DNA of 64,000 nucleotides from Escherichia coli O157:H7 (GTDB lineage: Bacteria > Pseudomonadota > Gammaproteobacteria > Enterobacterales > Enterobacteriaceae): assembly GCF_013167455.1 (NCBI RefSeq), contig NZ_CP038328.1; one strand, 5' to 3'. Below, in pieces: positions 35,862 to 37,611 of the stretch (position 1 is its first letter; every line of letters starts with the position of its first letter). Made by a program: the position numbers.

Positions 35862-37611
35862 TAATTACACGTTAATTAGTTTTGAATTGAAAAGGGCGCT
35901 TCGGCGCCCTTTTTGCTGCCCGTAATTTGAGCTCGAAATATTTAGTCGTAATTTTGCTCGCTGAACTATGGCGCAAATAAAACTGTGCTATTGTAATCAT
36001 AACTATTCTCATTTACACTTTGCGCAGAATTTGAACGGGAGCAATCATGTACGTTTGTTTGTGTAATGGTGTAAGTGACAAAAAAATTCGCCAGGCAGTC
36101 CGTCAGTTTCATCCGCAATCTTTCCAACAATTGCGTAAGTTTATTCCTGTGGGAAATCAATGTGGTAAGTGCATTCGCGCCGCGCGCGAAGTGATGCAGG
36201 ACGAGTTGATGCAGATGCCAGAATTTAAAGAGATTGCCTGAAGCCCACGCTTATTTTTTGACATCCCGCTAGCCCCATCTACGCTCTAATAGTGGAAGCG
36301 GAGGGACTATAAAATGAAAGGTGATGTTAAAATCATAAATTATCTCAATAAACTATTGGGAAATGAGCTTGTCGCAATCAATCAGTATTTTCTCCATGCC
36401 CGGATGTTTAAAAACTGGGGACTGATGCGTCTTAATGACGTCGAATACCATGAATCCATCGATGAGATGAAACACGCTGATAAATATATCGAGCGTATTT
36501 TGTTTTTAGAAGGAATCCCCAACTTACAGGATTTAGGTAAGCTAGGGATCGGTGAAGATGTCGAAGAGATGCTGCAATCCGACCTGCGATTAGAGCTGGA
36601 AGGTGCGAAGGATCTGCGTGAGGCTATCGCGTATGCCGACAGCGTTCATGACTATGTTAGCCGCGATATGATGATCGAGATCCTTGCCGATGAAGAAGGT
36701 CATATCGACTGGCTCGAAACTGAACTGGATCTCATCGGTAAAATCGGCCTACAAAATTACCTGCAATCACAAATTAAAGTTAATGATTAACGGCCTATCA
36801 GCAAACTATCCCAGCCTATAACGAAACCCGCAGCCGCCAGAAATGGCCCAAAAGGCAGCGGGTTTTTTAATGATTCTTTTCCTCTCATGAGCAGACCAAT
36901 AACTACGGCTCCGCAAGCGAATGAGGCAGCAAGGAAAACCAGTCGTGGTAAGAAGGCCCATGAATGCCAGGCGCCAAGGGCGGCGAGAAACTTCACATCA
37001 CCATAGCCTAATCCTTCTTTATGGCGCAGTATGCGATACCCCCAGTAAATGACAGCGAATGTGCCGTAACCAATAATTGCCCCCCATAACGCATCGGCTA
37101 AACCATCAGGATGACAAACTTGATAGAACAAAAGACCTGACCAGAGTAACGGGCACGTAAATCTGTCAGGTAACAAGCCATGCTTTGCATCCCAGAAAAA
37201 AAGTAGGGCTGATAAACAAGCGTACAAAATTAGAAAGGGAAGGGTAGTGTCCATAAAACATCCTCTGTAATTGGAGTATCACCATCGAATAACTCCGGAT
37301 GCTCAGCAACAGAGAGAGCGCTGATTTGTTAACCTGATTCCGGTGAAAAACGCTATCTTCACAACCTTACAAATTTCGTGGAATGCAGCTCGCAATCTGC
37401 GCGTTGCGATTAATTTCTGCCCGATGCTTGCGTCAGGCTCAGATTTGCGTATAATGCGCGGGCTTGTCGTAGTTGACAGCAGGTTCAATCTGAACCTCAG
37501 TTAGCCGAATTTGGCTACCTAACAATGCTCCCAATCGGGGAGCTACGTAAGAACGGTTACACTCTCCCATCAATCGTAATGGGTCTGAGGAGTAATCATT
37601 TTCGTTTATAA

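Follow-up and report, generated by a model that had tools for sequence, protein, structure and literature searches.

According to Chen et al. 2007 (PMC2189734), the bfd gene of Escherichia coli K-12 is preceded by three Fur sites forming a 31-bp cluster at position −40 (20.2 bits). Repression of a bfd-lacZ fusion by Fur and binding of Fur upstream of the gene were described for the same organism (Beauchene et al. 2015, PMC4676285), and a Fur box of bfd was predicted in an ExPEC strain (Huja et al. 2014, PMC4145685). Under iron-replete conditions only, Gao et al. 2023 (PMC10164565, Dataset 2) recorded ChIP-exo peaks of Fur which they assigned to bfd. The role of the Bfd protein is the mobilisation of iron from bacterioferritin, and the expression of bfd and of the bacterioferritin gene bfr is reported to differ (PMC7762939). 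No published transcription start or promoter description was found for bfd, the phrase "bfd promoter" being absent from the literature searched.

The window, i.e., the whole stretch of 64,000 nucleotides of E. coli O157:H7 analysed here, harbours the local gene order fusA, tufA, terminator hairpin, bfd and bfr, followed by hopD on the opposite strand. The 461 bp around the site in question are 100 % identical to those of many O157:H7, O145 and other genomes, where tuf, bfd and bfr are annotated. The features of the locus are as follows (window positions):

tufA, open reading frame ending at 35864
35889–35914, + strand, intrinsic terminator hairpin of tufA (11-bp stem, UUCG loop; RNA fold −18.5 kcal/mol, z = −2.9)
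35989–36019, no strand assigned, extended Fur cluster (very probable), consisting of the core and a weak site 6 bp to each side (2.7 and 1.3 bits) and spanning −35 to −10
35991–35996, + strand, predicted −35 hexamer TTGTAA
35995–36013, no strand assigned, core Fur operator (very probable), 9-1-9 dyad AATCATAACTATTCTCATT with its centre at 36004, i.e., −43 from the bfd ATG
36014–36019, + strand, predicted −10 hexamer TACACT, 17 bp past the −35 hexamer
36037–36041, + strand, Shine-Dalgarno sequence GGGAG of bfd, within a conserved ACGGGAG block 5 nt ahead of the ATG (column conservation 0.90)
36047–36241, + strand, bfd, the regulated gene, for the bacterioferritin-associated [2Fe-2S] ferredoxin of 64 aa (open reading frame; RefSeq annotation of identical DNA)
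36314–36790, + strand, bfr, for bacterioferritin of 158 aa, the partner downstream of bfd (open reading frame; RefSeq annotation)

Since the tufA terminator shields bfd from read-through, bfd needs a promoter of its own. A terminator scan of 35800–36400 yielded no calls and the hairpin was seen by folding instead; the scan probably missed it because the A/U-extended stem uses most of the U-run. Further downstream, the bfd-bfr spacer contains a perfect TTGACA (36258–63) followed after 16 nt by TACGCT (together 36258–36285), and K-12 keeps TTGACT-16-TACTCT at this place. Judged by these hexamers, this could be a promoter of bfr itself, which would fit the differing expression of the two genes.

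The AT-rich 22-mer TGTAATCATAACTATTCTCATT is located at 35992–36013 on the + strand, corresponding to −55 to −34 from the bfd ATG (36047), and has a G+C content of 23 %. Two symmetric weight matrices, one in the classical and one in the 9-1-9 register, were constructed from 19 Fur sites of K-12, that of bfd being left out. These training sites, chosen as footprinted, gel-shifted or well-known, were drawn from 15 stretches of NC_000913.3, located by the coordinates that Chen et al. 2007 tabulate (PMC2189734, Tables 3 and 4). Since the 9-1-9 matrix fitted every published centre unadjusted, the coordinate conversion is valid, and the K-12 bfd site, serving as control, scored 21.3 bits at −40, in agreement with the published value of 20.2 bits for that position.

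In the 9-1-9 register, the core AATCATAACTATTCTCATT attains 19.7 bits and ranks first among the 63,982 positions of the window, the next best match reaching 15.1 bits. By chance, 0.008 matches of this score or higher would be expected in 64 kb, and 0.0002 within the AT-rich spacer. The preliminary description had proposed a Fur box ahead of bfd on the basis of the DNA sequence, and the top rank of the core bears this out; nor is the score a poor one relative to bona fide sites, as the leave-one-out scores of the training sites range from 7.7 to 27.7 bits (median 20.9).

The match had also been called imperfect, which is correct for the classical 19-bp consensus GATAATGATAATCATTATC, where 13 of 19 positions agree, and for the dyad, the arms of which (AATCATAAC and ATTCTCATT, flanking T36004) are self-complementary at 6 of 9 positions as read from the sequence, i.e., to a real but partial extent. 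A search for GATAATGATAATCATTATC with at most 3 mismatches returned no match, because the bfd site deviates at six positions, a number normal for real sites: the 19 bona fide K-12 training sites agree with the classical consensus at 12–16 of 19 positions, a range that includes the bfd site. To a large part the imperfection is an effect of register, the core matching the 9-1-9 consensus at 15/19 positions.

With the classical-register matrix, 12.8 bits are obtained at 35992 (35992–36010) and 11.8 bits at 35998 (ranks 1 and 3 of 63,982), and no other two matches of ≥7 bits in the window have a spacing of 6 bp. The training sites score 10.8–22.4 bits in this register (median 18.6), three of the 19 falling below the 12.8 bits of the bfd site, which is therefore at the low end. 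Among 20,000 dinucleotide shuffles of the tufA-bfd spacer, 290 reach 12.8 bits and 3 yield a 6-bp pair.

Published occupancy data agree with this position. In E. coli W, the ChIP-exo peak spans 3667868–80 (PMC10164565) and the matrix site is centred at 3667868, 6 bp away from the peak centre; in W3110, which carries the K-12 haplotype, peak and site are 19 bp apart. For strain Sakai, the peak is given at 4189912–24 in NC_002695.1 (PMC10164565), 121 bp from the site in NC_002695.2. Offsets between these two genome versions, as measured at ryhB (137) and feoA (118), are of similar size to the 121 bp at bfd, and after correction for such an offset the Sakai peak would coincide with the bfd site. 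In both W and Sakai, the peak at the bfd operator is followed 149 bp downstream by a second iron-replete Fur peak (PMC10164565); labelled "bfr, intergenic" by Gao et al. 2023, the latter maps inside the bfd coding sequence (36141–36153). No matrix site lies under this second peak, the nearest being a weak one of 7.6 bits at 36331–36349, inside bfr.

According to published data, deletion of fur increased bfd expression in eight strains, with log2 changes of 7.30 (W3110), 3.58 (W), 3.08 (KO11FL), 5.52 (042), 3.11 (BL21), 2.42 (Crooks), 2.27 (Sakai) and 5.23 (CFT073). Derepression was smaller in the two window-haplotype strains checked (log2 2.3–3.6) than in W3110 (7.3), and operator or promoter of the window type may behave somewhat differently from those of the K-12 type.

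Very probably, then, 35995–36013, embedded in the 31-bp cluster 35989–36019, represents the Fur operator of the bfd promoter. This assignment is based on sequence match, statistics and conservation as well as on published in-vivo occupancy and fur-dependent expression.

The Fur core fills the spacer of the predicted promoter and overlaps its −35 hexamer. An overlap with a plausible −10 region had been suggested beforehand; the overlap with the predicted promoter concerns chiefly the −35 hexamer and the whole 17-bp spacer, and the −10 hexamer is only abutted. A sigma-70 scan of 35800–36400 called no promoter on either strand, the window hexamers with 8/12 positions being just under the threshold of the tool. 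The homologous promoter of K-12 (TTGAAA-17-TATTTT) is the only promoter-like match on the bfd strand there. Across genera the pattern TAnnnT of the −10 hexamer is kept in the versions TACACT, TATTTT, TATCCT, TATGCT and TAGACT. Transcription of bfd is predicted to start near 36026.

We infer the promoter hexamers, the start site, the number of Fur dimers and steric occlusion in the following scheme. With plentiful iron, Fe2+-Fur dimers would occupy the AT-rich dyad between, and overlapping, the predicted −35 and −10 hexamers, and bound Fur would presumably exclude RNA polymerase sterically, keeping bfd off. Upon iron scarcity Fur would depart and bfd could be transcribed, whereupon the Bfd ferredoxin would aid the release of bacterioferritin-stored iron. 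The site would act as a switch, opening the bacterioferritin store to the cell only under iron shortage.

The operator might in addition act in both directions and repress, in the tufA-bfd haplotype, a small RNA transcribed divergently from bfd. This putative counterpart of Salmonella STnc4000 would run on the minus strand from about 35983 to the tufA hairpin, which would then terminate transcription in both directions. STnc4000 itself is divergent from bfd in Salmonella, is repressed by Fur and has a Fur box over its −10 region (Colgan et al. 2016, PMC5001712). In the window, the minus strand offers TACAAT (35995 to 35990), agreeing with the −10 consensus at 5 of 6 positions, and the hairpin at 35889–35914 is followed by UUUU on this strand. 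We nevertheless regard such an RNA as unlikely, since the candidate −35 hexamer TGTAAA matches at only 3 of 6 positions, no promoter-like call was made on either strand, and the would-be body (35887–35983) is unconserved across genera (0.46 column identity) and of variable length. E. coli expression data for such an RNA were looked for and none were found. In any case, a divergent RNA would supplement the Fur operator of bfd and not replace it.

STnc130 (Rfam RF02084) gave a full-length match on the minus strand of the stretch 35883–36015 with 22.6 bits as compared to a gathering threshold of 55 (E = 0.3–0.6), which is a chance match; this identity was rejected also on context, as STnc130 adjoins dmsA in Salmonella rather than tufA or bfd.

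A further explanation would reduce the site to an AT-rich sigma-70 promoter which resembles a Fur box by chance and owes its conservation to contacts with RNA polymerase. The composition of the intergenic region (61 % A+T) suits this view, as does the expectation of 0.8 single matches of 12.8 bits per 64 kb in the classical register; even on AT-rich background, though, the expectation for the 9-1-9 score remains at the 0.0002 given above. Conservation was analysed in an alignment of 19 Enterobacterales sequences. Sixteen of them are loci obtained by scanning a genome collection for the bfd 5′ end (among the matches listed); the others are the window, K-12 and E. coli W. Upstream of 35991 no conservation is apparent; from this position onwards, the 19 sequences share an invariant TTG, a conserved block extending through CATTTAC and then the Shine-Dalgarno sequence. 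Column conservation, calculated for 15 non-redundant sequences, is 0.46 upstream, 0.94 at the −35 hexamer, 0.86 in the spacer and 0.80 at the −10 hexamer.

TTG of the −35 and TA...T of the −10 hexamer are among the most conserved bases, as expected from polymerase contacts. The 17-bp spacer is, however, conserved as well, although the sequence of sigma-70 promoter spacers is normally unconstrained, and this argues for an operator. Moreover, conservation is concentrated in the columns that carry information in the Fur matrix (Spearman 0.62 between per-position conservation and information content, p = 0.005), the dyad centre being the least conserved column. Given that the published ChIP-exo peaks and the derepression in fur mutants concern this very sequence, a promoter with fortuitous Fur-box resemblance can hardly account for the site. 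Primary binding by another protein of AT-rich DNA (H-NS, IHF or Fis), with a secondary Fur signal, is likewise highly improbable: AT-rich, curved-looking DNA just past a terminator is typical nucleoid-protein territory and many Fur ChIP peaks lack a regulatory effect (PMC4676285), but the position-specific conservation tracks the Fur matrix, Fur binding is confined to iron-replete conditions and bfd responds to fur deletion in eight strains.

High-scoring Fur sites ahead of bfd are also found outside of the aligned group. Among 111 bfd-like loci from Gamma-, Beta- and Alphaproteobacteria and Nitrospira (among the matches listed), 69 possess a Fur site of ≥15 bits within 200 nt upstream of bfd (median position −50), as compared to 6 of 3,973 control windows of the same loci (0.15 %). 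The exact 19-mer of the window occurs also in Escherichia sp. ESNIH1, Phytobacter and Buttiauxella.

Strong Fur boxes of the E. coli type were observed at −30 to −60 of bfd in Alphaproteobacteria and Nitrospira (loci L021, L037, L125, L031, L069 and others), e.g., ATTGACAATCATTATCATT with 23.1 bits in a Pelagibius MAG. Many Rhodospirillales have a related palindrome of lower score at bfd (ATTGCGAAT..ATTGCAAT).

Comparison with K-12 revealed two deeply diverged bfd-bfr haplotypes in E. coli (window 35865–36790 versus 3250–4160 of the K-12 locus L001). Nucleotide identity between them is 76.6 % for bfd and 79.5 % for bfr, as opposed to 99.8 % for the adjacent 3′ end of tufA. The K-12 locus contains chiA and gsp secretion genes, the window hopD only. 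Of 5,425 complete genomes, at least 2,255 are of the window type and 3,160 of the K-12 type. The Bfd and Bfr proteins of the window are nearer to those of Kluyvera, Phytobacter and Enterobacter than to those of K-12. The operator is kept between the two haplotypes despite 23 % difference in bfd, pointing to its strong maintenance.

Other Fur-like matches in the window concern different genes. The second-best one, AATGATAATTTTCATCAGT (54371–54389, 15.1 bits; 0.14 expected per 64 kb), overlaps the start codon of trkA (53009–54385, minus strand). In one of nine strains, KO11FL, an iron-replete Fur ChIP-exo peak was assigned to trkA-rsmB-fmt-def (Gao et al. 2023, PMC10164565); its distance of 18,380 bp from the bfd peak of KO11FL translates into window position 54384. 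A second Fur site is likely at the trkA start. A match of 14.7 bits (59203–59221) is located inside a transposase gene and is probably due to chance. The respective insertion sequence (58301–59514) belongs to the IS3 family, has two overlapping transposase open reading frames (108 and 295 aa) and is presumably IS629-like. The AT-rich intergenic region 6143–6808 is associated with several moderate matches, namely 6574–6592 with 12.2 bits in the classical register as well as 6857–6875 and 6710–6728 with 12.6 and 10.4 bits, respectively, in the 9-1-9 register.

The bfd site is a genuine, functional Fur operator which is already known. As anticipated in the preliminary description, Fur control of bfd was to be expected: predictions of it date back to 2007 or earlier, a reporter fusion demonstrated it in 2015, and ChIP-exo mapped Fur to the exact sequence in 2023. 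The value of the case lies in calibration: a true operator was recognised from sequence alone, and the doubt about its match arose from use of the classical 19-bp register instead of the 9-1-9 dyad.

Among known systems, the bfd Fur cluster of K-12 (Chen et al. 2007, Table 4) concerns the same gene and is located at −40 as compared to −43 in the window. Both share the 31-bp, three-site layout and the predicted promoter geometry (−35 TTGnAA, 17 bp, −10 TAnnnT), and their cores are identical at 16 of 19 positions (AATCATAACTATTCTCATT with 19.7 bits in the window, AATAAGAACTATTTTCATT with 21.3 bits in K-12). They differ in the upstream neighbour, which is tufA in the window and chiA in K-12. With respect to the sites occupied in vivo, the DNA of Sakai and that of the window agree completely (100 %) over 461 bp, and in W a single base of the site is changed, namely the dyad centre, which carries no information. 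In essence, ChIP-exo had already recorded this element in the two strains.

The ryhB and gpmA operators of K-12 have a right arm (ATTCTCATT) identical to that of the bfd site, and each agrees with the latter at 16/19 positions overall. Like bfd, with its predicted promoter, both have one strong 9-1-9 site that overlaps the promoter; their higher leave-one-out scores (25.5 and 27.7 bits) result from a left arm nearer to the consensus. Salmonella Typhimurium (Colgan et al. 2016, PMC5001712) shares with the window the tufA-bfd-bfr context and a Fur box in the tufA-bfd spacer, whereas a divergent small RNA beside bfd is documented only in Salmonella.
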